Below the pieces are notes generated by a model. The model was not told the DNA's origin and did not search any database. It saw only the letters and a program-made list of their open reading frames with translations. A stretch of 62,836 nt of DNA, filler included, from an uncultured bacterium (GTDB lineage: Bacteria; DAOPZR01): the NCBI GenBank assembly GCA_964637655.1. It is 6 parts of 6 records of this genome, joined end to end, with 100 filler letters (N's around TTAATTAATTAA, not from the genome) between each part and the next. Parts side by side here need not be neighbours in the genome. Positions count along the whole stretch, not along the records: positions 1 to 10,514 come from CAZWUZ010000123.1; 5 more parts are not named here. One strand, given 5' to 3'. A program made the translations under genes and the position numbers. Positions within the stretch are counted from its first letter, which is position 1. The number at the start of each line of letters is the position of its first letter. Shown here one piece after another: positions 1 through 15,853 of the stretch.

Positions 1-55
1 CCCGCTCTATGGATGGTAGGATATAGTGACAATAAGTCGTTACGGGGAGGACGCC

Positions 56-2842
56 ATGCGTCTCATGCTCGCCTGTTGCATCATCCTGCTGCTTGCCGGT
101 GCTGCCGCCGCGGAGATTGTGCTTGACCGTTCGGGCACGCTGCAGGCGGGCGACCCGCAACTCGATGACGGCTCCTATTACGACCGCTACGTCATCATCG
201 TGAATGCGGGTGACCGGTTCCAGTTCGACCTTACCGGCAGGAATTACGACCCGTACCTGATTGTCACCGCTCCCGACGGCGCCCGCGAGTACAACGACGA
301 CATCGATGCGAACGACCGCAACAGCCGGCTGACGTTGACCTTCGCCACGGGCGGGCAGGTCATCATCTACGCGACCAGCTATGCGGGTAATGTGACGGGC
401 AGTTACCGGCTGCAGGCGCAGCGTCTTGGCAGCGGCGGCACCACCGTGACGGTTGCTGCTCAGCCCGCGGCGGGGTGGATTGCCGGCCGGCTCGAGTCAG
501 GCGACCGCACGCACCGCGACGGCTCCTATCTCGACTACCACGAGTTTGCCGGGCGGCGCGGCGAGCGGGTGACCATTGTGCTTGAGGCGGACGATTTCGA
601 CCCGTACCTCTTCCTCATGGGCCCGGACGACTGGCAGCAGTCGAACGACGACGATGGCGCCAGCCGCAACTGCCGCCTGGCGGTAACGCTCCCCGCCGAC
701 GGCACCTACTACGCCGTGGTCAACTCCTATGGCGAGGGTGCGCATACCGGCGCCTATCGGCTGCGTATCGACCGCGGCAGCGGCGGCACCACGACCGGCG
801 CCGCGGCCGCTGCCGGCGGTGCCACCACGTCCCTCAGCATCGGGCGCACAGTCGAAGGACGGCTCGCCGCGGGTGACCGCACACACCGCGATGGTTCCTA
901 TCTCGACTACTACACCTTCCGCGGGCGCGCGGGGCAGACCATCACCGCGACGCTGGAATCATCCGTTTTCGATCCCATCCTTTTTCTGCAGGGACCAAAC
1001 GATTTCAGCATGCAGAATGACGACATCGACGAGCAGAACCGCAACGCACGCATCGTCGCCACCCTGCCGGCCGCCGGCGAGTACCGGCTCATCGCCAACT
1101 CGTACGGCGAGGGTGCCCGCACCGGCGCGTACACCCTGACGCTGGCGGAGGGCGGAAGTGTCACCCCCGCCAACGCGCCGGCCACCGGGGCGACGCGCCT
1201 GCAGCCGGGCCGCAGCGTCAACGGCAACCTGCGCGCCGGTGACAGCACACTGCGCACCGGCGAGTTCTACGACATGTTTTCGCTTGAAGCGCGCGCGGGG
1301 CAGGCGTTCGCCGTCGACCTGTCCGGCGACGGGTTCGACCCGTACCTTTTCATCCGCGGCCCGGAGAACTTTTCCGAGGATAACGACGACTTCAACGAGG
1401 ATCGCACCCGCTGTCATATCGAGTTCTCCGCGCCGGCCGCGGGCACCTACCGCGTCTATGTCACCTCCTACCGCCCCGCGGAGACGGGCAGTTACCGGCT
1501 CGCGGTGAGCGATCCCGCTGCCGGGCGCGTGACCGTCGCGGCGCCGGCCGCCGGCACCACCGTGCTCGCTTTCGACCGTCCGGTCAGCGGCACGCTCAGC
1601 CCGCAGTCGGGCACCCTGCGCTCGGGCGAGTACCGCGATGTCTACACCTTCCGCGGCACCGCCGGCGAACAGGTCGTGCTGGACCTGTCGTCCGCCGATT
1701 TCGACGCCTACCTCTGCCTGCGCGGGCAGGGGCTGAGCGAGGACAACGACGATGCGCGCGAGAATGCGCGTGACGCGCGGCTCGTCTGCACGCTGCCGCG
1801 CACGGGCGAGTACCAGGTCTTCGCCACCACCTACCAGGCGGGAATGGGCGGCACCTACCGCCTGCTGCTCAGCCGCGGCACCGGGGCGCCGCCGGTCGTC
1901 ACGCCACCGGTTGATCCGCCCGTGACCACCGACGACCACAGCGAACAGTGGTCCGTGCCGACCTCCGTCGACGGCGGGCGCGTCTTCGGCATCTTTGTCG
2001 GCATCAGCGACTACCCGGGCGACGGCAACGACCTGCCGCTCTGCGCCGACGACGCGCGCAAGTTCGCCGACGACCTGCGCCAGGCGCGCGTTTCCTCCGC
2101 CGCCGAGCAGGTGGTGCTGCTCGACCGTGATGCCACCACGGGCGCCGTGCGCCGCGCGTTCGCCCGACTCGCCCCGCGCGTCGGGCCCAACGACCTGTTC
2201 ATCTTCTTCTACTCGGGACACGGCAGCCAGTCCGAAGACAACCCGTCATCACCCGAGCGCGACCGCCGCGAGGAGTCGCTCTACCTCTACGACGGCGAAC
2301 TGGGTGACGACGAGATGGGGCAACTGCTCCGGCAGGTCAACTGCCGCATCGCGGTGCTCGCGCTCGATGCCTGCTTCTCGGGCGGCTTCCGCGACGCGCT
2401 CACCCAACCGGCACAGCTCGGGCTCTTCTCCAGCGAGGAGGACCTCACCTCGGCGGTGCCCGACAAGTTCCAGGCGGGGGGCTACCTGTCGCACTTCCTG
2501 CGTGTCGGGCTGCTCGGGGCGAGTGACAGCAACCGCGACAACCGCGTGACGGCGGGCGAACTGTGCGAGTACCTCTACCGCCAGTACGCGCAGGAGGTGA
2601 CCGGGGTCTCCTCGGAGACACTGGAGGGGGCGGAATCCTACCAGCATCTCGTCGTCGACCGCGGCGGGGTCAAGGTCAGCGACCTGCTGCTGTCGCTGGC
2701 GCAAGTCGAGCAGTCGCTCAAGTATTCGCCCGGATCGAGCGCGCGCGGCGCGGGGCGCCGCCTGCAGGTGGCAGTGCCGGCCAATTCGCCGGCCGCCGTC
2801 GTGCCGAACGCGCTGCCGCCCGCCTCGTCCGGCAAACACTAA
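56..2842 (+). CDS. Secreted caspase-family (clan CD, C14) peptidase with five N-terminal PPC-like beta-sandwich repeats
   Basis: ATG at 56 after GGGGAGG; signal peptide MRLMLACCIILLLAGAAAA; five ~105-aa repeats (G.L..GD....G.Y.D.Y.F...FDPYL...NDD...Y.L); C-terminal caspase fold with FFYSGHG (His) and LDACFSG (Cys). Confidence 0.85.
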   Translation: MRLMLACCIILLLAGAAAAEIVLDRSGTLQAGDPQLDDGSYYDRYVIIVNAGDRFQFDLTGRNYDPYLIVTAPDGAREYNDDIDANDRNSRLTLTFATGGQVIIYATSYAGNVTGSYRLQAQRLGSGGTTVTVAAQPAAGWIAGRLESGDRTHRDGSYLDYHEFAGRRGERVTIVLEADDFDPYLFLMGPDDWQQSNDDDGASRNCRLAVTLPADGTYYAVVNSYGEGAHTGAYRLRIDRGSGGTTTGAAAAAGGATTSLSIGRTVEGRLAAGDRTHRDGSYLDYYTFRGRAGQTITATLESSVFDPILFLQGPNDFSMQNDDIDEQNRNARIVATLPAAGEYRLIANSYGEGARTGAYTLTLAEGGSVTPANAPATGATRLQPGRSVNGNLRAGDSTLRTGEFYDMFSLEARAGQAFAVDLSGDGFDPYLFIRGPENFSEDNDDFNEDRTRCHIEFSAPAAGTYRVYVTSYRPAETGSYRLAVSDPAAGRVTVAAPAAGTTVLAFDRPVSGTLSPQSGTLRSGEYRDVYTFRGTAGEQVVLDLSSADFDAYLCLRGQGLSEDNDDARENARDARLVCTLPRTGEYQVFATTYQAGMGGTYRLLLSRGTGAPPVVTPPVDPPVTTDDHSEQWSVPTSVDGGRVFGIFVGISDYPGDGNDLPLCADDARKFADDLRQARVSSAAEQVVLLDRDATTGAVRRAFARLAPRVGPNDLFIFFYSGHGSQSEDNPSSPERDRREESLYLYDGELGDDEMGQLLRQVNCRIAVLALDACFSGGFRDALTQPAQLGLFSSEEDLTSAVPDKFQAGGYLSHFLRVGLLGASDSNRDNRVTAGELCEYLYRQYAQEVTGVSSETLEGAESYQHLVVDRGGVKVSDLLLSLAQVEQSLKYSPGSSARGAGRRLQVAVPANSPAAVVPNALPPASSGKH

Positions 2843-2849
2843 GGAGCAC

Positions 2850-3512
2850 GTGCGACACATGGTGCGCCGTGCCTTCACCGGGTGGCGTGGATGGGTGTGG
2901 GGACTGCTCGGCATCGTCGCCGTCGCCACCGGTTGGTATGTACAGCAAGTGCCGCCGCCGGCCACGATTCCGCTGGACGATGAACAACAGTCCCTGGTTC
3001 TCGCCTATGAGCCACGCTATTCCTTTCTTGAAATTCTCGCCCTCGGTCTGTTCGAAAAGGCGCTTGCCCGTTCAGATCCGGACCGTTTCCTTGAAGCGGT
3101 TTGCATACTGTATCAGGATGAGAGCGCGCCGTATATCGAGCAGCAGCATATCCCCCGCCTGGTCCGTCTGTATACCGGGCCTCCCGACTACTACACGGAC
3201 TCGGCCGACGTAGCACATGTGGCGTTTCGCCGGAATGCACTGCAGGATACACCCGACCAGCAAATCAGCATTATTGCCGCTGCCACCGGTAGACGTTTCG
3301 CCATAGCGCACCCGGAGAAGGCAGCGTCATGGCTCATCCGCCATAACACCGTAAACCGCTTATTTGGAGAGCCGGAACTCCCTCTTGCTGCTATAAGCGG
3401 GAAACTTAGGGAACGCGATGAGCGGCTGGTGCCGTTTGCCGACGCACTACAGGTCGATATTCAACCGATAGCGGAACGCTGGCTCGCTGATTTCAATGCG
3501 CGAAATGATTGA
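2850..3512 (+). CDS. Hypothetical protein with N-terminal transmembrane anchor
   Basis: AAGGAG RBS overlapping the caspase stop; hydrophobic WVWGLLGIVAVATGWYV segment; start GTG 2850 or ATG 2859. Confidence 0.65.
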   Translation: MRHMVRRAFTGWRGWVWGLLGIVAVATGWYVQQVPPPATIPLDDEQQSLVLAYEPRYSFLEILALGLFEKALARSDPDRFLEAVCILYQDESAPYIEQQHIPRLVRLYTGPPDYYTDSADVAHVAFRRNALQDTPDQQISIIAAATGRRFAIAHPEKAASWLIRHNTVNRLFGEPELPLAAISGKLRERDERLVPFADALQVDIQPIAERWLADFNARND

Positions 3513-3544
3513 ACGCCATCGCGCGAAATAGCCCGGACAGGAAA

Positions 3545-4603
3545 CTACAGCAGTTTGGTGTAGGCAGCGAGGAAGGCATCCATTTCCGCGTCGGTTCCGA
3601 TGCTGACGCGCAGCCAGTTGCTGATGCGCGGCTTGCTGAAATGCCGCACCAGCACCCCGCGTGCGCGCAGCCCGGCAAAGAGTTCCGCAGCCGGGCGCGA
3701 CGGGTGGCTGATAAAGATGAAGTTGGCGGCGGACGGGATGACCGTCGTGCCCGCCTGCTGCAGGCATGCGACAACCCGTTCGCGTGTCGCGATAACTTTC
3801 GCCGTCGTGGCCGCGTAGTAGGCGGTATCCTGCAGCGCGGCCGCCGCCCCCGCCAGCGCCAGGCGGTCGAGCGGATAGGAATTGAACGAGTCCTTGATGC
3901 GCACCAGCCCGTCGATGAGTGCCGCACTCCCCAGCGCATAGCCGACACGCAGCCCCGCCAGCGCATGCGATTTTGACAGAGTGCGCACCACCAGCAGGTT
4001 GGGATGTTCCCCGCTATGCGCGGCCATGCTCTCGCCGCCAAACGCGACATACGCCTCATCACAGATAACCGCACGAGTGCGGTCCGCCGCGGCGATGCGC
4101 GCGATGGCCGCCGCCGGCAGCGCGCGCCCGGTTGGCGCGTTCGGGTTGGCCAGCGCCACGCCCCGTCCCGGGACGCAGAGCGCGTCTACCGGCACGGAAA
4201 AATCCTCCGTCAGCGGCACTGTCGTATAGGGGATGCCATACAATTGCGCGTAGACAGAATAGAAGCTGTAGGTGATATCGGGTGCCAGCAGCGGGCACTC
4301 CGCGGAAAAGAACGCGGCGAACGCAAAGGCGAGAATCTCGTCCGAACCGTTGCCGACAAAGACCTCAGCCGCGGTCACCCCGTGTTGCGCGGCAATCACC
4401 TCGCGCAGCGCCAGTCCTGTCGGATCGGGATAGAGCCGCAGCGTGTCGTCTGTTGCCGCGCGGATGGCGGCAAGCGCCGCCGGTGACGGCGGGTAGGGGT
4501 TCTCGTTGGTGTTGAGCTTGATGTACGCGCGGTCGCGCGGCTGCTCGCCCGGCACATACGGGACGAGCGCGCGCGTGCGCGCATTCCAGCAGGGTGACGC
4601 CAC
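3545..4603 (-). CDS. hisC: Histidinol-phosphate aminotransferase
   Basis: PYVPGEQP, IKLNTNENPYPPSP, GNGSDE, NPNAPTG, DEAY, RTLSKSHALAGLRVGY (PLP Lys). Confidence 0.95.
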   Translation of the reverse strand: MASPCWNARTRALVPYVPGEQPRDRAYIKLNTNENPYPPSPAALAAIRAATDDTLRLYPDPTGLALREVIAAQHGVTAAEVFVGNGSDEILAFAFAAFFSAECPLLAPDITYSFYSVYAQLYGIPYTTVPLTEDFSVPVDALCVPGRGVALANPNAPTGRALPAAAIARIAAADRTRAVICDEAYVAFGGESMAAHSGEHPNLLVVRTLSKSHALAGLRVGYALGSAALIDGLVRIKDSFNSYPLDRLALAGAAAALQDTAYYAATTAKVIATRERVVACLQQAGTTVIPSAANFIFISHPSRPAAELFAGLRARGVLVRHFSKPRISNWLRVSIGTDAEMDAFLAAYTKLL

Positions 4604-4608
4604 GGGGA

Positions 4609-4812
4609 TCAGGCTTCGGCGTGCGGCTCGACCGCGACGACCTGCACCATTTCGGGCGTCAGCAGGTAGGTTTCGTGGTAGTCGCGCGGCTCGCAGAGCA
4701 GGCGCACGATGTTCTCCGCCGTCACCGGCAGGTCGTACTCGCGGCTCTGTCCGCGACTCCCCCCGATGCGGTGTTTCACCGTATCCGGCAGCAGGAGCGT
4801 CACTTTCTTCAT
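4609..4812 (-). CDS. Small hypothetical protein (67 aa)
   Basis: GGAGG RBS before (GTG)ATG AAG AAA; exactly fills the gap between the PHP-TPR gene and hisC; MKKVTLLLPDTVKHRIGG... Confidence 0.7.
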   Translation of the reverse strand: MKKVTLLLPDTVKHRIGGSRGQSREYDLPVTAENIVRLLCEPRDYHETYLLTPEMVQVVAVEPHAEA

Positions 4813-4822
4813 CACGGTCCTC

Positions 4823-6505
4823 CTATTCCTGCAGGTTGGCCAGCAGGTCGCTGACTTCGGCATACTGTTTGCCCGGGGTCGCCAGTTCGAGGTAGCGGCG
4901 CAGCGCCACGCGCGCCATCCCGTACTTGCGCTGCTTGTAGCCGAGCGTCCCCTTGGCGTAATGCGGCGCCGGGTTCCCCGGTGCCAGCGCGGCGGCGCGG
5001 TCGAACTCCTCCGCCACCACCTCGAACGGCTTGCGCAGGTGGAACAGGTTCCACGCATGCTGCAGATGCACCTCGTAGCGCAACGGATGCTTCGCGTCGA
5101 GCCGGTCGAGCAGGCCGCGAAAGAGTTTCTCCGCCTCGTCCGGCTGCCGCAGCCGCTGCAGGGCCAGCGCGCGGTACAAATCGCGCTCACCCTCACCGTC
5201 GTCGCTCATCTGCACCGTCAAATCGAGCAGCGCGCCATGCGCGCGGCTCTTCCACAGGCGTTCCGCCTCGAGCAGCTGCTGCGCGCGCTTTGCCCGCTGC
5301 GCGGCAGGCGTGCCGTCCTTCGCCTTCTCCACCGCGTAACCGAGCTGCCTGAGTTCCGTTGCGTCCCAGTGCGCATAGGCCATGCCGCCGCTGACATGAC
5401 AGGGCAGTGTTTCCGCCCCGGTCACCAGCGTCTGCGGGTCGGGCTCGACTCCGCGCGCGATGCCCACGAGTCGCGGAATGGCGAAGTTGAGGATGGGATT
5501 GCTCAGCGGCGGCAGCGCCGCCAGTTCCGCCGCGCTTTTGCCCGTCAGTTCTTCCGTCAGGCGTGCGCGTTCCGCTTTCGGCAGGTGCAGGACGAGACCG
5601 GCCGCCTTGACCGCGTCGGCAACATCCATCACCTGCAGATGGCCCGCCGCGGCCACCGTGGTGCCGGTATCGCCCGCGGGCGTAAGCGCGTCAGCGCAGT
5701 CGTCGTCAATACGTTCCGCCACGCGCACCGTCTCGTCGTAGGTCTCCGCCGGGAAGCCGAGATGCTCCATCTCAGCGCGCGACTTGAGGTAGCATTCCTG
5801 CGACTCGATGCCGTAGCCCGTCAGTTCCCCGTACAGCGTCTTCATGACAATCCGCTGCAGGTACCACTCAGGCTGACGCGCGAAGTGGCAGTCGTTGACC
5901 GCCAGCACCTTCACCCCCTGCGCTTTGCCCAGTTCGAGGATGGCGCGGTTCGCCATCTGCTGTTCGGGGAAGAAGTGGTCGGCGACTTCGAGATAGAAGT
6001 CATCGCCGAAGATTTCGCGGTAGCGGCGCAGCGTCGTCTCCGCCTCTTCCTGCCGCCCGCGCCAGAGCGCGTCGGGTATGCGCCCGAAGATGCACGCCCC
6101 GGTGGCAATAAGTCCTTCGCGGTGCTCCGCCAGCAGGTTGAAATCGACCAGCGACACGCGACTGTCGACCGCGTACTTCGCCGTGCTCGCGCTCTGCAGC
6201 GCGATCAGCGAGCGCACGCCGGCTTTATTCTTCGCCAGCAGGATGAGGTGATATCGGTCGTTGCGGTGCTGCGCGCAGGCCTGCGCGGCATCATCGACAA
6301 AATAGGCCTCGAGCCCGAGAAGGGGCTTGACGGGGTGGTCGCGGCAGGCGCGCACGAATCGCGGCCAGAGCGCCAGCGAGTTGTGGTCAGTGACCGCCAG
6401 CGCCGGCTGTCCGAGTTCCGCGATGCGGGCAACACCATCCTCCACCCGCATCCCGCTGTCGAAGAAGAAGTGGTTGTGAAGGTGGACGAACGCTTCGCGC
6501 GCCAC
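4823..6505 (-). CDS. DnaE-type PHP domain + degenerate DnaE-like segment + C-terminal TPR repeats (no polymerase catalytic motifs)
   Basis: GTG start 1 nt after the secG stop; FVHLHNH, ALAVTDHN, GLEAY, HLILLAKN, ATGACIFG, FYLEV, VNDCHF, YLKSRAEM match the Pol III alpha PHP domain; C-terminal TPR-like helices (AAALAPGNPAPHYAKG...LRRYLELA). Confidence 0.8.
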   Translation of the reverse strand: MAREAFVHLHNHFFFDSGMRVEDGVARIAELGQPALAVTDHNSLALWPRFVRACRDHPVKPLLGLEAYFVDDAAQACAQHRNDRYHLILLAKNKAGVRSLIALQSASTAKYAVDSRVSLVDFNLLAEHREGLIATGACIFGRIPDALWRGRQEEAETTLRRYREIFGDDFYLEVADHFFPEQQMANRAILELGKAQGVKVLAVNDCHFARQPEWYLQRIVMKTLYGELTGYGIESQECYLKSRAEMEHLGFPAETYDETVRVAERIDDDCADALTPAGDTGTTVAAAGHLQVMDVADAVKAAGLVLHLPKAERARLTEELTGKSAAELAALPPLSNPILNFAIPRLVGIARGVEPDPQTLVTGAETLPCHVSGGMAYAHWDATELRQLGYAVEKAKDGTPAAQRAKRAQQLLEAERLWKSRAHGALLDLTVQMSDDGEGERDLYRALALQRLRQPDEAEKLFRGLLDRLDAKHPLRYEVHLQHAWNLFHLRKPFEVVAEEFDRAAALAPGNPAPHYAKGTLGYKQRKYGMARVALRRYLELATPGKQYAEVSDLLANLQE

Positions 6506-6506
6506 G

Positions 6507-6881
6507 CTACTGCTGCGCCGGAGCCGCGGGCGCCGCCGGTGCTTCGGCCGGTGCTGCCGCGGGCGCTTCGGCTGCCGGTGCAGGAGCCGCGGCCGGAGCC
6601 ATGTCACCCGGCAGCGGAATATCTTCCACCGGCGTGCTGCGGATTTCCGACAGGCCGCCCAGCCCGTACAGGTTGATGACCACCGACCAGACGACAAAGG
6701 CCAGCGCCAGTCCGATGGTGGCGCGCGTCAGCACGTTGCCGCTCGTCGCCCCGAAGAGCGTGTTGGCCGACCCGCCGCCGAATATGGCGCCCAGTCCCGC
6801 GCCCTTGCCCTGCTGCAGCAGGACCACGACCATCAGCGCCACGCAGATGAGCACATGTACCGTGATGAGAAAATAAAACAT
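6507..6881 (-). CDS. secG: Preprotein translocase subunit SecG
   Basis: VVVLLQQGKGAGLGAIFGGG...LFG...NVLTRAT; two TM helices; follows the tpiA/gpmI genes. Confidence 0.93.
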   Translation of the reverse strand: MFYFLITVHVLICVALMVVVLLQQGKGAGLGAIFGGGSANTLFGATSGNVLTRATIGLALAFVVWSVVINLYGLGGLSEIRSTPVEDIPLPGDMAPAAAPAPAAEAPAAAPAEAPAAPAAPAQQ

Positions 6882-6933
6882 GGTGTTCTCCTCGCTTTCC
6901 TCTACCGGCGGCCGTACCGCCGTCTCTCGTTCG

Positions 6934-8487
6934 TTATTCCGCCAGCAGCGACTGCGCCGTCATCTCCGCCGGGACCTTCAGGCCCAGCAGCTGCAGCACC
7001 GTCGGCGCGATATCCGCCAGTTTGCCGCGCGGGACCAGTTTCTTCCCCGGCGCGTCCGTTGCCACCCAGATGCAGTCGACGGGGAAAAGCGTGTGGCTGG
7101 TCTTGGTCATCCCCGTTTCGTAATCCACCATCTGCTCGGCGTTGCCGTGGTCCGCGGTGATCAGCACGTGCCCGTCAAGTTCCAGCATCCGCGCGACCAC
7201 CTTCCCCACGCACTCGTCCACCACTGCGACCGCTTTTTCCGCCGCGGCGAAATTGCCGGTATGCCCGACCATGTCGCCATTGGCAAAATTCACCGCGATA
7301 AACGCGTACGGGTTACTTTCCAGCCGCTTGAGCAGTTCTTCCGTGACGCGATACGCTTCCATCTCCGGATGACTGGCAAAAGTCGCCGGGTCGAACCGCC
7401 CCTCGATCTGCACGTCGTCCTCGCCGTTATACGGGGTGGTTGCCTTGCCGTTGCAGAAGCTCGTCACGTGGCGGAATTTCTGGGTTTCCGCGATACGCAG
7501 CTGACGCAGCCCGGCTTTGCTGATAACCTCGCCGAGCAGGTTGTCCATCGCCCCGCCTTCGCCCATCGGCCCCATGAGGTACTCGGTGAATTCGTCGTAA
7601 TAGCGGGTGAAGCCGAGGTAGGTAACCTGCGGCTTTGCCTGCAGTTTCCCGGGGTAGGCCGCGTCGACAAACGCCTTCGTCAGCTGGATGGCGCGGTCCT
7701 GCCGGTAGTTGGTGTGAAAGACGCAATCCCCGTCCTTGATGCCGGCATAGTCACCGACGATATGCGCCGGGATATACTCGTCGAACATTTCCACGCCGTC
7801 GGGGGTTTTGTCCTGCGCGTAGGACGCCTCCACCGCCTGTTTCGCCGACGCGGTCTTCCGCCCCTGCGCGCAGACAATGGCATGGTATGCCTCGTCGGTG
7901 AGTTGCCAGTTGGCCGAACGGTCCATCGCGTAGTAGCGCCCCATCACCGTGCCGATGCTGCAGTGGCCGAGTTCCTGCATCACCTTTTCCAGCTTGAGCA
8001 GGTACTCGAGGCAGCTGCGCGGGGGCGTGTCGCGCCCGTCGAGGAACGGGTGGAACACGATACGCCCCTGCGGGTGTTCTTTCCGCGCCTGCCGCGCGAG
8101 CGCAAACAGCTGTTCGCAATGCGCGTGCACTCCCTCGTCCTGCAGCAGTCCGAAGAAATGCAAAGCGCCGTTGTTCTTTTTCCACTGCGCCATCAGCTGC
8201 TGCCACTTCGCCTCGCGGAAGAGCGAGCCGTCGCGGAACGCGTCGTCGATGCGCTTGAGTTCCTGGATGACGATGCGTCCCGCCCCCATATTGAGATGCC
8301 CGACCTCGCTGGAGCCCTGGTAGCCGTCAGGGAGACCGACCGGCTCACCCGCCGCGTCAAGCAGCGTGCGCGGATAGCGGTAGCAGTAGCGGTCGAGGTT
8401 CGGGGTGGCCGCGGCAAACGCCGCGTTCCCCTGCGGGCTGGGATTGTACCCCCACCCGTCACGGATGATCAGGCAGACAGGACGCAT
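6934..8487 (-). CDS. gpmI: 2,3-bisphosphoglycerate-independent phosphoglycerate mutase
   Basis: LIIRDGWG, GSSEVGHLNMGAGR, DGRDTPP, GRYYAMDR, AETQK, NGDMVGHTG, TADHGNAE, LADIAPT. Confidence 0.96.
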   Translation of the reverse strand: MRPVCLIIRDGWGYNPSPQGNAAFAAATPNLDRYCYRYPRTLLDAAGEPVGLPDGYQGSSEVGHLNMGAGRIVIQELKRIDDAFRDGSLFREAKWQQLMAQWKKNNGALHFFGLLQDEGVHAHCEQLFALARQARKEHPQGRIVFHPFLDGRDTPPRSCLEYLLKLEKVMQELGHCSIGTVMGRYYAMDRSANWQLTDEAYHAIVCAQGRKTASAKQAVEASYAQDKTPDGVEMFDEYIPAHIVGDYAGIKDGDCVFHTNYRQDRAIQLTKAFVDAAYPGKLQAKPQVTYLGFTRYYDEFTEYLMGPMGEGGAMDNLLGEVISKAGLRQLRIAETQKFRHVTSFCNGKATTPYNGEDDVQIEGRFDPATFASHPEMEAYRVTEELLKRLESNPYAFIAVNFANGDMVGHTGNFAAAEKAVAVVDECVGKVVARMLELDGHVLITADHGNAEQMVDYETGMTKTSHTLFPVDCIWVATDAPGKKLVPRGKLADIAPTVLQLLGLKVPAEMTAQSLLAE

Positions 8488-8497
8488 GTGGTTTCCC

Positions 8498-9262
8498 CTA
8501 CTTCCGCGTGAACTTGACGATGCGCGCGAAGGACTCCGCCTCGAGCGCCGCGCCGCCGACCAGCGCCCCGTCGATATCGGGCTGCGCCATCAGTTCGTCG
8601 ACATTGTCCGGCTTGACACTGCCGCCGTACTGGATACGCATCTCCTCGGCAACCGCGCCGAACAGTTTGCGCAGCTCGCCGCGGATGAACGCGTGCACTT
8701 CCTGCGCCTGCGCCGGGGATGCCGTCTTCCCCGTGCCGATGGCCCAGACCGGCTCGTAGGCGATGGTGATGCTCTTCGCGTCGTCCGCAGTGAGGCCCGC
8801 GAGTCCGCCATGCAGCTGCGCCTCGATGACGCTGAAGGTGGTGCCGTTCTCGCGCTGCGCCAGCAGTTCGCCCACCGCAACGATGGGGAGCAGCCCCGCC
8901 TTGAGCGCGGCTTTCGTCTTTTTGTTGACCGTCTCGTCGGTCTCGCCGAAGAACTGCCGCCGCTCACTGTGGCCGATGACCACACACGCGCAGCCCGCGT
9001 CCTTCAGCTGGTTCGGGGCCACCTCGCCGGTGAACGCCCCCTTCTCCTCCCAGAACACGTCCTGGGCGCCGACCATGATATTGCTCTCCTTGAGCGAATC
9101 AGCCAGCGGCTTGAGCAACGTGAAGGTCGCGCAGATGGCGATGTCCGCATCCTTCACCGTCATCACCGCGGGTTTCAGCTTCGCCGCCGTCTGCAGCGCC
9201 TCGCTGATCGTCTTGAACATCTTCCAGTTGCCGGCCAGGAACGGCCTGCGTTCTTTGCCCAT
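8498..9262 (-). CDS. tpiA: Triosephosphate isomerase
   Basis: AGNWKM, GAFTGE, IGHSERR, AYEPVWAIGTG, YGGSVKP, LVGGA; ATG 6 nt after GGAGG. Confidence 0.97.
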   Translation of the reverse strand: MGKERRPFLAGNWKMFKTISEALQTAAKLKPAVMTVKDADIAICATFTLLKPLADSLKESNIMVGAQDVFWEEKGAFTGEVAPNQLKDAGCACVVIGHSERRQFFGETDETVNKKTKAALKAGLLPIVAVGELLAQRENGTTFSVIEAQLHGGLAGLTADDAKSITIAYEPVWAIGTGKTASPAQAQEVHAFIRGELRKLFGAVAEEMRIQYGGSVKPDNVDELMAQPDIDGALVGGAALEAESFARIVKFTRK

Positions 9263-9289
9263 CGTCATCCTCCGTGTGTGCAGCAGAAA

Positions 9290-9316
9290 CCGCGGCGGGC
9301 TCAAGGCCCGCCGCGG
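9290..9316 (-). terminator. Perfect 11-bp GC stem-loop between pgk and tpiA (weak terminator or mRNA-stabilising hairpin)
   Basis: CCGCGGCGGGC-tcaag-GCCCGCCGCGG; only a short TTTCT tail on the minus strand. Confidence 0.45.
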
Positions 9317-9328
9317 GATAGTGTGCTG

Positions 9329-10514
9329 CTACGCCTTATCGAGCGCCGCGGCGCCCGGCAGCGTCTTCCCCTCGAGAAACTCGATGGAGGCGCCGCCGCC
9401 CGTCGAGACGTGCGACATCTGCTTTTCCAGCTTCAGTTTGCCTACCGCCGACGCCGAATCGCCGCCGCCGATGATGGTGATGGTCCCCTTCGCCGTCGCC
9501 GCGGCCAGCGCCTCGGCCACCGCTTTCGTCCCCGCGGCGAAATCAGCCGCCTCGAAGACGCCCATCGGGCCGTTCCAGACGACCGTGCCGGCCGCCGCGA
9601 TCACGGCGCTGAACGCCGCCACCGACTTCGGCCCGATATCCATCCCCATCAGCCCGTCGGGGATGTCCGCCCCGTCGGTCGGCTGCGGGATGCCGCCGGT
9701 CATGGCGGCAAAATCGAACGTATCGACGCAGACATGGTCGACGGGGAGCAGGATCTTGTCGCCCGCCTCCGCCAGCAGCTTCTTCATCGCGTCGACCTGG
9801 TCCGCCTCGACCCGGCTTTTGCCGACCTTGACGCCCTTCGCCGCGAGCAGCGTATAGGCCATCGCCCCGCCGATGAGAATGCGGTCGACCTTGCCCAGCA
9901 GGTTGGAAATCAGCAGGATCTTGTCCGACACCTTGGCGCCGCCGAGGATGGCGACGTACGGCCGCTTCGGGTTCGTCACCGCCTGCCCGAGAAACTTCAG
10001 TTCCGCCTCCATCAGCAGCCCCGCCACCGCCGGCTTGACCGTTTCGCCGAGCAGCGCCGTCGAGGCGTGGGCGCGGTGCGCCGTGCCGAACGCATCGTTG
10101 ACGTAGCAGTCGCAGAGTTTCGCCAGCTGCGCGACAAACGCCTTCTGCTTCTCCTTCAACTCCGCCTTGGCCGCCTTCTTGACGTCCTCGGGCGCATCCT
10201 TGGGGAGTTTCGGCTTGCCTTCCTCCTCGGGATAGTAGCGTAGGTTCTCCAGCAGCAGCACCTCGCCATCCTTGAGGGCAGCGACCGCCGTTTCCACCTC
10301 GGGGCCGACGCTGTCAGCGACGAACTTCACCTCGCAGCCGAGCACCTCCGACGCCTTCTTTGCCACCGGGGCGAGCGAGAATTCCGGCTTGCGCTGCCCG
10401 TCCGGACGCCCGAGGTGCGAGCCGAGGATGATGCGTGCCCCCTTTTCCCGCAGCAGGGTGATGGTCGGGATGGTGGCGCGGATGCGCTTGTCGCTGGTCA
10501 CCACCCCGTCCTTG
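9329..10514 (-). CDS. pgk: Phosphoglycerate kinase (5' end truncated by contig break)
   Basis: [58 protein letters not shown]. Confidence 0.97.
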
Positions 10515-10961: not shown

Positions 10962-13900
10962 TCATACCGCCATCGCCACCGGCTCAGCCGGTCCCTGGCA
11001 GGCCGCGACAAACAGGGCGGCAGTAGGCGCGTAATTCTGCAGCTGCACCCATTCTTCGCGACTGGCGAGCCAGATCCAGTCATGGGGTGAGGCCTGATAG
11101 GCGCGCACCAGTCCGTTCAGTTCGTGCAGGGTCGCAGGCCCGTATTGCTGACCGGCGAGATTGAAATAGCACGGGGTTTCCTCTGCTCCGGGCTCGGCCG
11201 GCAGGATAACATCCGTGGCGGGCGCTGATTCAGCACCCGTCACCTGCTCCTGCATTCTTCCGCCCCGTGCCGCCTGCATGGCCGCGCATTCATTGCGCAG
11301 GCGGGCCATTTCCGACGCGAGCATGGTTTGCGCCGTCGCGGTCTGTTCCTTGCGCAGCACCGCATTTTCCTGGCGCAGGCGGGTCATCTCCGCCGTCAGT
11401 ACCGCCTGTTCCGCGTGCTGTTCCGACAGCGTCAGTGCCGCCCGGGCCAGTTCGTCACGCTGCGCCGCCAGGATAGCCGCCCGTTCCTGCCGGGCCAGCG
11501 CGGCGCCGGCCTGTTCCCGCTGCTCCTGTTCCCGCAGTTCCAGCAGGGTTTGCTCGCGCTGCGCCAGTTCGCCGGCCAGCGCTTCGCTCCGCGCCGTGGC
11601 CTGCGCCAGTTCCTGCTCGCGCTGCGCCAGTTCCTGCAGTTGTTCCTCCGCCAGCACCACCTGCTCCTCACGCCGGCGCGCTTGCGCGACGCGTTCCTCC
11701 TCGGCCGGCTGCGCCCGGGTCACCACCACGCGATTCTGCAGTTCCTGCCGCTCCCCGCGCAGGCGTGCCATTTCCTCATCCAGCGCCGCCCGCTGCTCGG
11801 CATCAGCCGCCATCGCCAGCGTCAGCGCCGTATGTTCCGCCCGCTGCCGTTCCAGTTCCGCAGTCAGCCGCGTCTGCACCACGACCGTCTCTTTCCGCTC
11901 CGTGCCCACCCGGGCCAGTTCCGCCGCCAGCGCCATCTGCTCCGCCGGTTGCGCCACCGTCACCCGCTGCCGCAGCCCGTCCTCCTCCGCCCGCAACCGT
12001 TCCAGCACCGCCGTGAGTTCCGCCTGCTGCCGTCGTGCCGCCGTCATGGTTTCCTGCCATTCCGTCTGTTCCCGGGCGCGCAGTGCCGCCAGTTCATTGG
12101 CCAGGGCGAGTGCCGCCGCTGACCGTTCCGCCTGTTCCCTGACCTGCGCCTCGGCCAGTTCAGCGGCCAGGGCCTCGGCCGCCGCCTGCTGCGCTTCCTG
12201 CTCCTGTGCCCGCAGTGCCGCCAGTGCCTGCTCGCGCTGTTCACGTTCCTGGCGCTGCTGTTCCTGCACCGCGCGCCGTGCCGCGTCAGCCGCCAGTTCC
12301 TGCATCAGCGCCGCGTGCTTGGCCCGCTGCCGGTCGAGTTCCGCCGCCAGACGCGACTGCACCGCAAGCGTGTCTTCCCGCGCGTTGCTCACCCGGGAGA
12401 GTTCCGCCGCGAGTGCGGCCTGCTCCGCCTCCTGCGCATCAATCAGGTAGAGGGTGGTCCCGTTCCTGGTCGCCGCCCCGATGGCGCCGGCCGGCGGGGC
12501 CGGGGCATGCGCATGCGCCGGCTGCTGCCTGGTTTCCTCCGCCAGGGCCTGTTTCAGCATGGCGTGTTCCGCGCGCTGCCGCTGCAGTTCGGCCTGCTGC
12601 GCCGCCACCAGCAGCGCGGCCCGGGCCGCCTCGTCGGTTGCCGGGCTGGTCACCTGCTGCGGCAACCGCGGCTCTGCCGGCACCTCGATCCGCGCCAGTG
12701 GCACTGCTGCTCTCGCCTGTTCCTGCTCCACGTTATCCTCCCGCACCGCGTTACCGTCCGGCTGCTGGTCATGCGCCTGTTCCTGCGCCTGCGCTTCCGC
12801 GAGTTCCTCTTCGCGCTGCACCTTCTCACCGTACACGACCGCACGCCGCGCGGTGTCCTCCGCCTGCATCGCGTAGCGCGCCGCATCATGCGCCAGCGCC
12901 TGCGTCAGCACCGCCTCCTGCGCCTGCCGCCGTTCCGCGTCAGCCGCCACCAGCGCCTGCAGGGCACCCTGTTCCTCGCCGGCCGTCAGCACCCGGTCCA
13001 GTTCCCTGGCGACTTCCTGATACTCGTCCACTGGTGTGGCCGTCAGGCACACCACCTGCACCAGTGCAACTGTTTCCGGCGTCGCCGCCGCCGCCACGAT
13101 GGCGGGCTCCGGCAGCGGGATGGCTGCTGACGGCACCGGCACGACGGTGCGCGGGGCGAACGTGGTGCGCTTCTGCCGCCCCCACTGCTTGTGGCGGAGG
13201 AGCGCGGAGAGCATCCCGCGGATGCGGTAGAAGTTGACCAGCTGGCGATAGCCGAAATTCTCGATAACCGCCAGCAGGAACAGCATCAGCAGATCGCGCC
13301 GCCGCGCGTAGCGGCGGAACGAGATCTCGCCCAGCCCGACGGACGAGAGCGACAGCGATACCCCGAGAAAGAAGGCAACCATGATAAAGGCCACGGCAAA
13401 GAACGGATTGATGATCTGCGCCAGGGCGTACGCCACGAACACGAAATAGCCGCAGAACTCGATTACCGGGCCGAACATTTCGAGCAGGTAGAAATAGGGG
13501 AACGCGAGCATCCCGATTTTGCCGTAGCGGGGATTGAACAGCATGCCGCGATGGCGGGCGAGTGAATCGGTCAGACCGCGCTGCCAGCGGTCGCGCTGGC
13601 GGCCAAGCGTGGCCAGCGTTTCCGGCGCCTGCGTCCACGCCACCGGATCGGGCACAAACCCGATGCGCAGGGGAATCTTCTCCTGCCGGCAATGACGGTG
13701 GAGCCGGATCACCAGTTCCATGTCTTCGCCGACGGTGTCATGCCGGTAGCCGCCGGCCTCGACCACCAGTTGCCGGCGGAAGACCCCGAAGGCACCGGAG
13801 ATGATCAGGGTCGAATCAGCCGCGTCCCAGCCCATGCGCCCGGAGAGGAAGGCGCGCATGTACTCGATCGCCTGGAACCTGGCCAGCCAGCTCCTGGGGA

Positions 13901-14555
13901 GTTTGACCTCGGTAACCACCCCGTCCCTGACCGTGCAGCCGTTGACGATGCGGATGATGCCGCCGACGGCCCCGGTGCGCGTATCTTCGAGGAACGGGCG
14001 GACGATGCGGGGCAGCGCGTCCCGTTCGAGCAGCGTGTCGGCATCCATGGCGGCGAACAGCGGGGTCCGGCAGCAGTTGATCCCGGCGTTGAGCGCGTCG
14101 GCCTTGCCGCCATTCTCCTTGTCGATCACCCACAGTTTCGGGATGGTGCTGCTCCGGTAGATGCCGCGGACGGGCTGCGTGGGAATCATCGCCGTCGGGA
14201 AGCGCACGGCCGGCACGAGCTGATAGGCCAGGCGCAGCCGGGTCAGCGTCTCGTCAGTTGACCCGTCGTTGACCACCATCACTTCCAGTTCGGGATAGGA
14301 GAGGTTGAGGAACGAGCGGATGCTCTCGACGCAGGTATCCTCCTCGTTGAAGGCGGGCGCGATCAGGGTGATGGGCGGTTCGATGCCCGCCGTCACCTGC
14401 GCGGCATCGAGCGCCTTGAGCCGCCGCGTATAATGGAGCATGGCGCGAAAGGCGAAGATGCTGGTGACTAAGTACACGCCGTTGATGGCGATGAAATAGC
14501 CGAGCAGCACCCAGTTGAATATTTCCAGGATGGTCCAGGCGAGCGCGACGCTCAT
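10962..14555 (-). CDS. Processive GT2 glycosyltransferase (PgaC/IcaA/cellulose-synthase-like) with long coiled-coil tail and C-terminal GYF_2-like domain
   Basis: VVNDGSTD, KENGGKADALN, MDAD, GEDME, QRDRW, TM helices; then ~600 aa of A/E/Q/R heptad-rich sequence; ends YFNLAGQQYGP..L...L.......WIW......W; ATGA overlap with the upstream gene. Confidence 0.88.
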   Translation of the reverse strand: MSVALAWTILEIFNWVLLGYFIAINGVYLVTSIFAFRAMLHYTRRLKALDAAQVTAGIEPPITLIAPAFNEEDTCVESIRSFLNLSYPELEVMVVNDGSTDETLTRLRLAYQLVPAVRFPTAMIPTQPVRGIYRSSTIPKLWVIDKENGGKADALNAGINCCRTPLFAAMDADTLLERDALPRIVRPFLEDTRTGAVGGIIRIVNGCTVRDGVVTEVKLPRSWLARFQAIEYMRAFLSGRMGWDAADSTLIISGAFGVFRRQLVVEAGGYRHDTVGEDMELVIRLHRHCRQEKIPLRIGFVPDPVAWTQAPETLATLGRQRDRWQRGLTDSLARHRGMLFNPRYGKIGMLAFPYFYLLEMFGPVIEFCGYFVFVAYALAQIINPFFAVAFIMVAFFLGVSLSLSSVGLGEISFRRYARRRDLLMLFLLAVIENFGYRQLVNFYRIRGMLSALLRHKQWGRQKRTTFAPRTVVPVPSAAIPLPEPAIVAAAATPETVALVQVVCLTATPVDEYQEVARELDRVLTAGEEQGALQALVAADAERRQAQEAVLTQALAHDAARYAMQAEDTARRAVVYGEKVQREEELAEAQAQEQAHDQQPDGNAVREDNVEQEQARAAVPLARIEVPAEPRLPQQVTSPATDEAARAALLVAAQQAELQRQRAEHAMLKQALAEETRQQPAHAHAPAPPAGAIGAATRNGTTLYLIDAQEAEQAALAAELSRVSNAREDTLAVQSRLAAELDRQRAKHAALMQELAADAARRAVQEQQRQEREQREQALAALRAQEQEAQQAAAEALAAELAEAQVREQAERSAAALALANELAALRAREQTEWQETMTAARRQQAELTAVLERLRAEEDGLRQRVTVAQPAEQMALAAELARVGTERKETVVVQTRLTAELERQRAEHTALTLAMAADAEQRAALDEEMARLRGERQELQNRVVVTRAQPAEEERVAQARRREEQVVLAEEQLQELAQREQELAQATARSEALAGELAQREQTLLELREQEQREQAGAALARQERAAILAAQRDELARAALTLSEQHAEQAVLTAEMTRLRQENAVLRKEQTATAQTMLASEMARLRNECAAMQAARGGRMQEQVTGAESAPATDVILPAEPGAEETPCYFNLAGQQYGPATLHELNGLVRAYQASPHDWIWLASREEWVQLQNYAPTAALFVAACQGPAEPVAMAV

Positions 14556-15853
14556 GACGGTATCCTTTCCGTGAGAAACTGGCGGACGAGTTCCGCCCGC
14601 GGATGGGCAGTCGCCACCAGCGCGGTCATGCGCGCGCGACCGCCCGCCAGCACGAGCGCGCCGACGGCCTGGATCGCCACCCAGATCGAGTTGTCGTTCA
14701 GGCAGGCCTCGAGCCGGTCGAGGTCGGCCGGCGCCGCCGGCTTGACCACCGCCCCCAGTGCCGTGGCGGCATGCGAACGCAGGATGGGGTCGGCCGACTC
14801 GAGTTCGGCGCGGATCACGGGCAGGTGGCACGGGAGTCCGACCGCGGTAATCAGCCGCAAGGCCGCCGCCCGCAGATTGACATCATCTTCGCGCCGGGTG
14901 AGCACCGCCGCCGCGGGGTCTGTCGCCCGCCGGTAGTTGCCGGGTGCCAGGAATTCGCGCACGCTGAGCAATGCCGCCGCGGTGTCAGCGCCCGGAAGAT
15001 CACGGAGTTCGATCAGCACCTCGAGCGCGACCAGCCGGGCGAAAACAGGTATTCCCGGATCGGCTATTTTTTCCCGCAGCAGGGGCGCGACCCCGACACC
15101 CATCCCGACAAACATGGTCGCGAGAAATTTCGGGCTCCAGGTTTCGAACCGGGCGATGCGGTCGAACAACGCGGCCGCATGCTCAAGATTATGCGTGCCC
15201 GCCAGTGCCCGGGCGGCAGTCAGCGCCACCAGGGGTGACCGATCGTCAAGCGCGCGGATGAATTTGTCCTGATAGTGATCAGCCGCAAACAGGCCGAAGG
15301 TGTGGAGCGACCGCGCCCGCTGCTCGTAATCCTTCGCGGTAAGCCGTTGTTCCAGCAGGGGGAGATACGGCGCGGCCAGGGCGTTGATAATCCGCAGCTC
15401 TTTGCCGGCCACCCGGCTGGCGTAATGGGTAAGGTAGTCGAGAAAAAAGAGCCGGTCATGGGCCCCGATCTGGTCGAGCAGCGAGGTTGGGGTGGTTTCC
15501 CCGGCAAGGACCGCAAGCAGCAGCGGCTGCCACACCTTTTCCAGTTTCGCCCAGCGCTCTGCTTTCCGCGTATTACCGATACGCAACCTGATGGTAACCA
15601 GCGCGAAGATGACCGTGAACACCAGCGAGACCAGCACCGTCAGGATGAGCAGGAAAAACACCCGTTCGGACGTGCTCAGCCCGAGGAACCAGGCGAGCAG
15701 CTGCCCATCCATGATATGAAACCGCAGCCCGGCCACTTCGTGCAGCACCTGCCCGACCGTCGCGACGAAGCCCTCCGGGCCAGCGGCCTGCGCGTTTCCG
15801 GCCGGCCAGCCGGTCAACACAGCGATGATGATGGTCAATAACAGAATTTTCAT
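14552..15853 (-). CDS. Membrane-anchored HEAT-repeat protein
   Basis: N-terminal signal/TM segments; HEAT-like repeats (ALDDRSPLVALTAARALA, LESADPILRSHAATALG, LNDNSIWVAIQAVGALV); coupled to the GT2 gene. Confidence 0.82.
   Translation of the reverse strand: MKILLLTIIIAVLTGWPAGNAQAAGPEGFVATVGQVLHEVAGLRFHIMDGQLLAWFLGLSTSERVFFLLILTVLVSLVFTVIFALVTIRLRIGNTRKAERWAKLEKVWQPLLLAVLAGETTPTSLLDQIGAHDRLFFLDYLTHYASRVAGKELRIINALAAPYLPLLEQRLTAKDYEQRARSLHTFGLFAADHYQDKFIRALDDRSPLVALTAARALAGTHNLEHAAALFDRIARFETWSPKFLATMFVGMGVGVAPLLREKIADPGIPVFARLVALEVLIELRDLPGADTAAALLSVREFLAPGNYRRATDPAAAVLTRREDDVNLRAAALRLITAVGLPCHLPVIRAELESADPILRSHAATALGAVVKPAAPADLDRLEACLNDNSIWVAIQAVGALVLAGGRARMTALVATAHPRAELVRQFLTERIPS

Follow-up and report, generated by a model that had tools for sequence, protein, structure and literature searches.

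A polymerase-less DnaE derivative with a PHP domain, a thumb remnant and a TPR-like domain in an uncultured bacterium

The genome of an uncultured bacterium (lineage DAOPZR01, assembly GCA_964637655.1) encodes a protein in which the PHP domain and the thumb region of a DnaE-type replicative DNA polymerase are joined to a C-terminal helical repeat domain, and from which the polymerase active site is gone. The gene lies in a stretch of 62,836 nucleotides made of six parts joined end to end (hereafter the window). Positions 1-10514 of the window are one contig of a metagenome-assembled genome (MAG) with 485 contigs, 90.6% completeness and 3.64% contamination. The product, which we call the PHP-TPR protein, is identical over 100% of its length to the gene-caller protein P0002 of the same 10,514-bp contig. 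We are highly confident of its domain anatomy and of its origin from DnaE. A first-pass annotation, made from the sequence by eye, had read the gene as a PHP domain followed by an eroded DnaE segment and tetratricopeptide repeats (TPRs), encoded within a housekeeping operon.

Domain anatomy, DnaE origin and relatives

The N-terminal part of the PHP-TPR protein is a PHP domain of the DnaE type. Residues 8-177 match Pfam PHP with an E value of 3.2e-35 and 122.3 bits against a cut-off of 26.4, and the polymerase III alpha model TIGR00594 scores 187.1 bits against a cut-off of 434.35, with only model positions 1-269 of 1022 matched. The best solved relatives are Mycobacterium tuberculosis DnaE1 (E 9e-32) and Thermus DnaE (E 2e-29). 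Among the 15 NCBIfam matches of the protein at E up to 1, the polymerase matches are all DnaE or PolC, and the PolX, HisJ and RNase AM families are absent. Nine candidate metal ligands, H10, H12, D16, H41, E66, H86, C138, D205 and H207, agree residue for residue with M. tuberculosis DnaE1 (7pu7) in the alignment. In that enzyme the nine PHP residues hold three zinc ions in a trinuclear centre, and exonuclease activity is lost on mutation of D23 or D226 (PMC5636811; this paper and PMC7584608, PMC12926913 and PMC3919608 are cited throughout from excerpts). The ligands of the PHP-TPR protein read HHDHEHCDH, a form of the nine-residue motif HHDHEH[C/H]DH used for 'active' PHP domains in PMC12926913, and the domain also reaches the gathering score of Pfam PHP (PF02811). 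All rows of the family alignments that cover these positions keep them (8/8 or 9/9 in the smaller alignment and all covering rows of the 14-row alignment), although the window protein and the rows from other lineages are only 25-33% identical overall. H8 is likewise conserved beside H10 and H12.

Residues ~283-395 are homologous to the thumb and second palm half of DnaE. When the whole family was compared with 14 DnaE sequences by hhalign, a single colinear match was obtained, with query residues 1-395 on template columns 47-597 (E 4e-59). Since a score of this size could come from the PHP domain, residues 276-400 were compared alone. With a 14-sequence family alignment against the 14-sequence DnaE profile, they matched residues 428-561 of the DnaE1 of the same genome with a score of 59.0, an E value of 1.4e-7 and a probability of 94%; the reversed control scored 14.8 and 30 column shuffles reached at most 17.5. 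A 6-sequence family alignment of the middle part gave an E value of 7.2e-6 (reversed control 16.3, shuffles at most 22.1). Moreover, a profile (A5) for which only the middle parts of polymerase-less members were used matches residues ~450-550, the thumb, of ordinary long DnaE frames in two other genomes.

Structural models agree with these alignments. In an AlphaFold2 (AF2) model of the whole protein, with a mean predicted local distance difference test score (pLDDT) of 82.5, residues 4-395 superpose on residues 5-619 of Thermus DnaE with a Z score of 42.6 over 381 residues, and residues 1-394 superpose on residues 1-555 of the Escherichia coli alpha subunit. A PHP-only chain gives a Z score of 28.6 in the same comparison. 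When the middle part was modelled alone (pLDDT 85.7), the top 14 Foldseek rows were all DnaE (E 1.4e-4 to 3e-2, TMq 0.60-0.73), followed by PolC and then by noise. A scan of 48,161 chains with the middle-only model, independent of Foldseek, placed C-family polymerases in all of its top six rows, whose Z scores lie between 6.4 and 4.7; in the DnaE rows the alignment covers 121-122 of the 125 residues, and the next row after these six has a Z score of 4.4 over 57 residues. By the domain limits of M. tuberculosis DnaE1 (PMC5636811), only the final strand of the first palm half is retained, followed by the thumb and the second palm half.

The polymerase parts themselves are missing. About 147 residues of the genome's own DnaE1 fall into the hhalign gap, including the invariant R367, G368, G372 and S373 (GRGS) and P405, D408 and D410 (PDxDxD). 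The catalytic aspartates of M. tuberculosis DnaE1 are residues 421, 423 and 587. By ungapped extension of the hhalign alignment, read by eye, the position of the third catalytic aspartate (D565 of the own DnaE1) is K394 in the PHP-TPR protein, where the family shows no conservation, so that the remnant is without all three polymerase carboxylates. A Pfam scan of the window protein gave no match to DNA_pol3_alpha (PF07733), to the fingers (PF17657) or to the HhH domain (HHH_6, PF14579), and no OB domain was detected; a scan of this kind does find PF17657 and PF14579 in the own DnaE1. With GRGS, PDxDxD, the third aspartate, the fingers, HhH and OB all gone, the PHP-TPR protein cannot be a polymerase.

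The C-terminal domain is TPR-like. The window protein itself matches TPR_2 only below threshold (14.8 bits against a cut-off of 27, E 0.03), and its homologues P0004 and P0094 pass the Pfam TPR cut-offs over the aligned columns with 61.6 and 54.2 bits. The modelled domain consists of nine helices and resembles the TPR domains of SycD, PcrH and IpgC with a Z score of ~13 over 123-127 residues, a value that helical repeats reach easily. Thus, of what the first-pass annotation had read by eye, the DnaE-type PHP motifs with their metal ligands (its HxH being H10 and H12), the DnaE alignment of the middle segment and the absence of the GRGS and PDIDxD palm region, the fingers and the OB domain are all upheld, and the loss extends to the third catalytic aspartate. 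Its TPRs stand on the homologues and on the model, with the protein's own matches remaining sub-threshold.

At least 14 relatives of the PHP-TPR protein were found, in several candidate lineages. Those with the same architecture include P0003 (65% identical), the orthologue in the same-family genome G001 (71%), P0004, which lies on a 386-kb contig, and P0094, from a MAG of Candidatus Tritonobacter (Candidatus Auribacterota) and with six cluster members. In the small phylum of P0004 a full-length copy is present in 5/5 genomes, 51-55% identical to P0004 and on contigs of up to 386 kb. The family is rare, since an exhaustive phmmer search of 1.84 billion representatives, with residues 271-560 as the query, returned two close relatives and P0094 and otherwise only generic TPR proteins. 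When the middle-domain profile was run over 300 relatives of the genome G061, ten genomes matched, two with ordinary DnaE frames and eight with polymerase-less members; the latter comprise five of P0004's phylum, one whose contig and coordinates are those of G001, and two that were new. As a separate observation, several short PHP-only database proteins (P0015, P0028 and others, 295-408 aa) look like truncated pieces of DnaE, as does P0012 (503 aa), a PHP protein with a weak AMP-binding-C match.

The gene is under purifying selection in all three of its parts. Against the G001 orthologue, the ratio of nonsynonymous to synonymous substitution (dN/dS) is 0.19 for the PHP domain, the lowest of the three, 0.34 for the middle part and 0.28 for the TPR domain. 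Contigs from public sequencing runs of three studies bridge the domain junctions (X1, 4517-5563; X2, 5211-5719; X7, 5611-6527), and the runs that carry the gene sequence come from wastewater, groundwater and a biogas fermenter. In a tree of the PHP domain with 40 rows, obtained by a quick search and without an inferred root, all 11 polymerase-less proteins (eight short, three long) form one group with an SH-aLRT support of 100, which is placed among DnaE1-type sequences and is separate from the hosts' own DnaE1. This result points to one old family of single origin. The first-pass idea of a duplicated dnaE holds as to descent from dnaE, with the refinement that the event was not a recent duplication in the source genome. 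The PHP and TPR homologues and the separate full-length dnaE for which it called have been found, and its fear of an assembly chimera is answered by the bridging contigs and by independent assemblies with the same architecture.

A long variant of 772-860 aa was found as five proteins (P0156-P0160), among them two new genome members of 837 and 860 aa (loci in Table 1). It keeps the nine PHP ligands and the middle domain. The nearest Atlas clusters of its C-terminal ~300 residues are all STAS and/or PilZ, with scores of 0.80-0.85, under the bar of 0.9. Structure rows for this region are of the PilZ/PilZN type at a TM of 0.35-0.48, and a comparison with PDB sequences gave no match. The long variant has probably exchanged most of the TPRs for a STAS/PilZ tail.

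The three hosts examined have separate replicases besides the polymerase-less protein. In the source genome, PHP, palm, fingers and HhH are all present in a full DnaE1 (1177 aa, 1234 bits), and a PolC is encoded in addition; the genomes G001 and G061 likewise combine DnaE1, a PolC-like gene and a polymerase-less protein (replicase contigs C177 and C193/C216 in the source genome, C26 and C64 in G001, C20 and C18 in G061). The pairing of DnaE1 with PolC is described as mainly clostridial and fusobacterial (PMC12926913); here a DnaE1 + PolC-type pairing occurs in 3/3 genomes examined, all from uncultured candidate lineages. A third DnaE-type gene, seen only in the source genome (827 aa, L002 1441-3924, minus strand, contig C67), comprises PHP, palm and fingers, with HhH and the OB region absent. 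It retains intact palm motifs and, as read by eye, has largely lost its PHP ligands (HxQ, TDT), so that the polymerase is kept and the PHP domain is dead, a mirror image of the PHP-TPR protein. Three small PHP enzymes are encoded elsewhere in the source genome, including a HisJ-like protein (258 bits against a cut-off of 117) and one resembling pAp-phosphatase/RNase AM.

Possible function and competing explanations

The anatomy suggests how such a protein could have arisen and what it might do. On this reading, an internal deletion of ~147 residues in a DnaE1-type (C-family) replicative polymerase removed the first palm half with the nucleotidyl-transfer motifs, and everything past the second palm half, namely the fingers, the HhH/clamp-binding region and the OB fold, was replaced by the TPR domain. 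What is left is the editing side, a PHP domain with its complete nine-residue trinuclear-metal site and a diverged thumb on the supporting palm strands. The PHP-TPR protein would then be a stand-alone zinc-dependent phosphoesterase that trims nucleic-acid 3' ends, either as a 3'-5' exonuclease or in 3'-end cleaning, by analogy with the PHP domains of M. tuberculosis and Thermus DnaE, and the TPR domain would bind a partner protein and bring the enzyme to its substrate. Catalytic activity, a nucleic-acid substrate and targeting by the TPRs are thus what we infer. We give the role as a 3'-end nuclease an even chance, the activity being predicted from ligand conservation. A catalytic role is favoured because the complete ligand set is kept at 25-33% identity and because the PHP domain is under the strongest constraint; a nucleic-acid substrate is favoured because the PHP domain is of the DnaE type and the thumb has been retained. 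In DnaE the thumb acts as a wedge between the strands and guides the end of the primer (PMC7584608). Weighing anatomy and origin together with the proposed nuclease role, we judge it reasonably probable that this is the best explanation overall.

Several observations weigh against this explanation. For the middle part alone, a 9-sequence family alignment gave an E value of only 0.0024, the structural Z score of 6.4 is modest, and the AF2 models were built on shallow alignments of 6-7 sequences. Pfam found no family in this part at E up to 10, and an hmmsearch of the A5 profile against PDB sequences found no DnaE, the best match being delta-crystallin (E 0.34). Of four basic positions of the own DnaE1 (R442, R444, R448 and R452), only one has a basic counterpart, K300, when read by eye in the register of the 6-sequence hhalign comparison; the thumb may thus be a mere scaffold, because the basic positions that contact DNA are mostly lost. 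Two further points concern the hosts. The PHP site of the host DnaE1 is apparently intact, as judged from the alignment by eye, and PolC normally carries a DnaQ-type exonuclease, so that there is no obvious proofreading gap for the PHP-TPR protein to fill. Finally, the neighbourhood names no pathway, because neighbouring genes differ between lineages.

One alternative is that the protein is a phosphoesterase whose substrates are small molecules or very short oligonucleotides, such as pAp, pGpG, nanoRNA or histidinol phosphate, in the manner of RNase AM/TrpH, the 3',5'-bisphosphate phosphatases or HisJ. Small PHP enzymes are indeed the next-best structural matches after the polymerases (2yb1, 3o0f, 9etk and 7ug9), but at Z scores of 16-17 compared with 42.6 for DnaE, and the PHP domain is specifically of the DnaE type, with no HisJ or RNase AM match in NCBIfam as noted above. 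The gene hisC starts 5 nt past the 67-aa open reading frame (ORF) that follows the PHP-TPR gene, yet this adjacency is absent in the same-family genome (L008) and in the other lineage, and the source genome already has HisJ-like and pAp-phosphatase/RNase AM-like proteins elsewhere. A link to cyclic di-GMP (c-di-GMP) is hinted at by a GGDEF gene that adjoins one relative and by the probable PilZ-type tail of the long variant, the latter as a lead only. A small-molecule enzyme would leave the selected thumb and palm remnant unexplained, and we regard this alternative as unlikely.

A second alternative makes the protein a non-catalytic adaptor or decoy, whose PHP-thumb surface and TPRs would bind replisome or repair proteins and whose metal site would be purely structural. 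The PHP domain of E. coli is catalytically dead and structurally needed, and together with the thumb it docks epsilon (PMC7584608); TPRs are protein-binding modules, and the loss of most DNA-contact residues from the thumb, judged by eye, would fit such a role. However, the nine ligands persist in every covering row across lineages, and the PHP domain has the lowest dN/dS of the three parts, whereas an inactive PHP domain such as that of the own 827-aa DnaE paralogue loses several ligands (by eye). We therefore consider an adaptor quite improbable. That the gene is an artefact, either a chimera of a dnaE 5' end and a TPR gene or a decaying dnaE pseudogene, has a negligible probability: the MAG is fragmented and contaminated to the extent given above and chimeric or truncated PHP proteins do exist in databases (for example P0064, a PHP domain joined to an aminotransferase tail), but the frame is intact, all three parts are under selection (dN/dS 0.19-0.34), the contigs X1, X2 and X7 come from other runs, and the architecture recurs in P0003, G001, five genomes of another phylum and P0094 with its cluster.

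The reading as a 3'-end nuclease can be extended to the whole family, with correspondingly greater doubt. The polymerase-less proteins might be 'editing-only' enzymes derived from the C family, in which the PHP domain and the thumb wedge are fused to TPRs in the short form or probably to STAS and PilZ in the long form, and which might serve several candidate phyla with PolC and DnaE1 replisomes as a proofreader in trans or as a nuclease for the repair of 3' ends, the long form under c-di-GMP control. We put this forward as a tentative and rather doubtful proposal.

Gene neighbourhood and other features of the window

The PHP-TPR gene is the fifth of seven genes in the order pgk, tpiA, gpmI, secG, PHP-TPR gene, 67-aa ORF and hisC, which lie on one strand with gaps of 1-52 nt (Table 1). 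Only 1 nt separates the secG stop codon from the GTG start of the PHP-TPR gene, and no terminator-like site was found between the two. The identities that the first-pass annotation had given to pgk, tpiA, gpmI and secG are confirmed by NCBIfam, and the co-transcription that it had proposed is likely, for the whole run from pgk to hisC, as judged from the spacing on a single strand and the lack of a terminator-like site after secG. An Rfam scan of the contig gave no match.

Table 1. Positions of the PHP-TPR gene, its parts and its neighbours in the window, and of two long-variant loci in other genomes
Feature	Position	Strand	Evidence or remark
PHP-TPR gene (polymerase-less DnaE derivative)	4823..6505	(-)	560 aa; GTG start 6505, TAG stop 4823-4825
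DnaE-type PHP domain, residues 1-270	5696..6505	(-)	Pfam PHP, TIGR00594, 7pu7 alignment, ligand conservation
DnaE thumb remnant with flanking palm strands, residues ~283-395	5321..5659	(-)	hhalign, AF2, structure matches, A5 profile
TPR-like helical repeat domain, residues ~400-560	4826..5308	(-)	Sub-threshold TPR_2, TPR matches of homologues, model
secG	6507..6881	(-)	TIGR00810, 73 bits (cut-off 30.85)
gpmI (cofactor-independent phosphoglycerate mutase)	6934..8487	(-)	TIGR01307, 504 bits (cut-off 331)
tpiA (triose-phosphate isomerase)	8498..9304	(-)	TIGR00419, 202 bits (cut-off 131)
pgk (phosphoglycerate kinase)	9329..10504	(-)	pgk half of NF010569, E 3.7e-140; 5' end cut by contig end 10514
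Conserved 67-aa ORF (P0150)	4609..4812	(-)	Directly downstream of PHP-TPR gene
hisC (histidinol-phosphate transaminase)	3545..4603	(-)	TIGR01141, 287 bits (cut-off 277)
Long-variant locus, genome G104	L053 208-2721	(-)	
Long-variant locus, genome G271	L054 646-3228	(+)	

The AGGAGG ribosome site of the 67-aa ORF overlaps the stop codon of the PHP-TPR gene. In the same-family genome G001 an ORF 71% identical to it occupies the same position (L008 337-531, minus strand). It has no Pfam match, its Atlas scores are at most 0.76, and a search with P0150 as query did not find it in three genomes of the other lineage (G061, G063 and G064). From its position, the product may be a partner of the TPR domain.

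The glycolysis and secG context is a feature of this lineage alone and was not found around the relatives, which in the other phylum have as neighbours a SpoU methylase, RmlC/RmlD-like genes, a generic histidine phosphatase and glycine-cleavage genes. Two functional links drawn from neighbouring genes were set aside. A histidinol phosphatase, suggested by the adjacency of hisC, was dropped because neither the same-family genome nor the other lineage has hisC downstream and because a HisJ-like gene exists elsewhere in the source genome; the aminotransferase near the relatives in the other phylum is BioF-like and not HisC. A link to phosphoglycerate mutase had been suggested by gpmI upstream and by a His_Phos_1 gene near the relative in 3/5 genomes of the other phylum, and this neighbour turned out to be a generic CobC/GpmB/PspA-like protein below all NCBIfam cut-offs.

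Other features of the window were recorded along the way. A 938-aa protein at 26-2842 (plus strand) combines about five repeats of a ~120-aa module, in which the motifs 'NDD...N/D...R' and 'GxYxL' recur, with a caspase-like domain after them (sub-threshold match to NF047832, E 3.6e-12), and in the same-family genome the C-terminus of this protein adjoins the 67-aa ORF. Between pgk and tpiA, at 9290-9316 (minus strand), lies an 11-bp all-GC stem-loop with a weak T tail, which may be a processing or attenuation element within the operon. Near position 6523, the Ala/Pro-rich tail at the C-terminus of secG is shortened by an in-frame deletion of 9 nt in contigs from one groundwater run, and its length appears to differ from strain to strain. 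On the next contig, a 1289-aa ORF at 10962-14831 (minus strand) has, as read by eye, an N-terminus like that of family-2 glycosyltransferases, with transmembrane segments, and a very long, repetitive, coiled-coil-like tail rich in Ala, Glu and Gln.

Relation to known systems

In full-text literature searches, neither a DnaE derivative without polymerase nor the joining of a DnaE-type PHP domain to TPRs was found to have been described, in keeping with the statement of the first-pass annotation that the architecture was not known to have been described; the supplements of surveys may nevertheless list such sequences. The C-family survey of PMC3919608 removed fragments without an intact polymerase site, and that of PMC12926913 discarded truncated sequences, according to the excerpts. 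A polymerase-less DnaE family would have been filtered out by surveys that discard such sequences.

The possible significance of the PHP-TPR protein lies in what it isolates. PHP proofreading is thought to be the ancestral mode in bacteria and has been studied only inside full polymerases. A naturally excised PHP domain with its thumb would be a minimal system for the handover of the primer end from a C-family polymerase to the PHP nuclease. If the long form truly carries PilZ, it would link second-messenger signalling to the processing of DNA ends.

The closest known system is DnaE1 with an active PHP proofreader, as in M. tuberculosis (7pu7, 5lew) and Thermus (2hpi, 4iqj). The nine ligands are the same, the thumb and second palm half are homologous and the parts follow in the same order, such that residues 1-395 of the PHP-TPR protein superpose on DnaE from residue 1 to ~590/620. 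Unlike DnaE1, the PHP-TPR protein is without the first palm half, the third aspartate, the fingers, the HhH/clamp-binding region and the OB fold, and has TPRs instead. The stand-alone PHP phosphoesterases (RNase AM/TrpH, the Cv1693-type bisphosphate phosphatase, YcdX and HisJ) share with it the PHP fold, the trinuclear metal site and the absence of a polymerase, but they match at Z scores of 16-17 and not 42.6 and have neither a polymerase-derived middle domain nor TPRs. The DnaQ/epsilon subunit of E. coli polymerase III offers a possible functional analogy only, as an exonuclease separate from the polymerase chain; it has the unrelated DEDD fold, and its partner and role are known. The nearest parallel in evolutionary terms is provided by the 'PolX-like' proteins of Actinobacteria, PolX1 homologues that are without the polymerase domain and keep PHP (PMC12926913), since here, too, a paralogue drops synthesis and keeps the PHP nuclease site. 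Their PHP lineage differs from that of the PHP-TPR protein because they derive from polymerase family X and not C, and the excerpts of PMC12926913 describe no thumb remnant or TPR fusion in them. The PHP-TPR protein and its relatives would be the C-family counterpart of these polymerase-less proteins and would strengthen the idea that the nuclease of such a polymerase can outweigh its polymerase.

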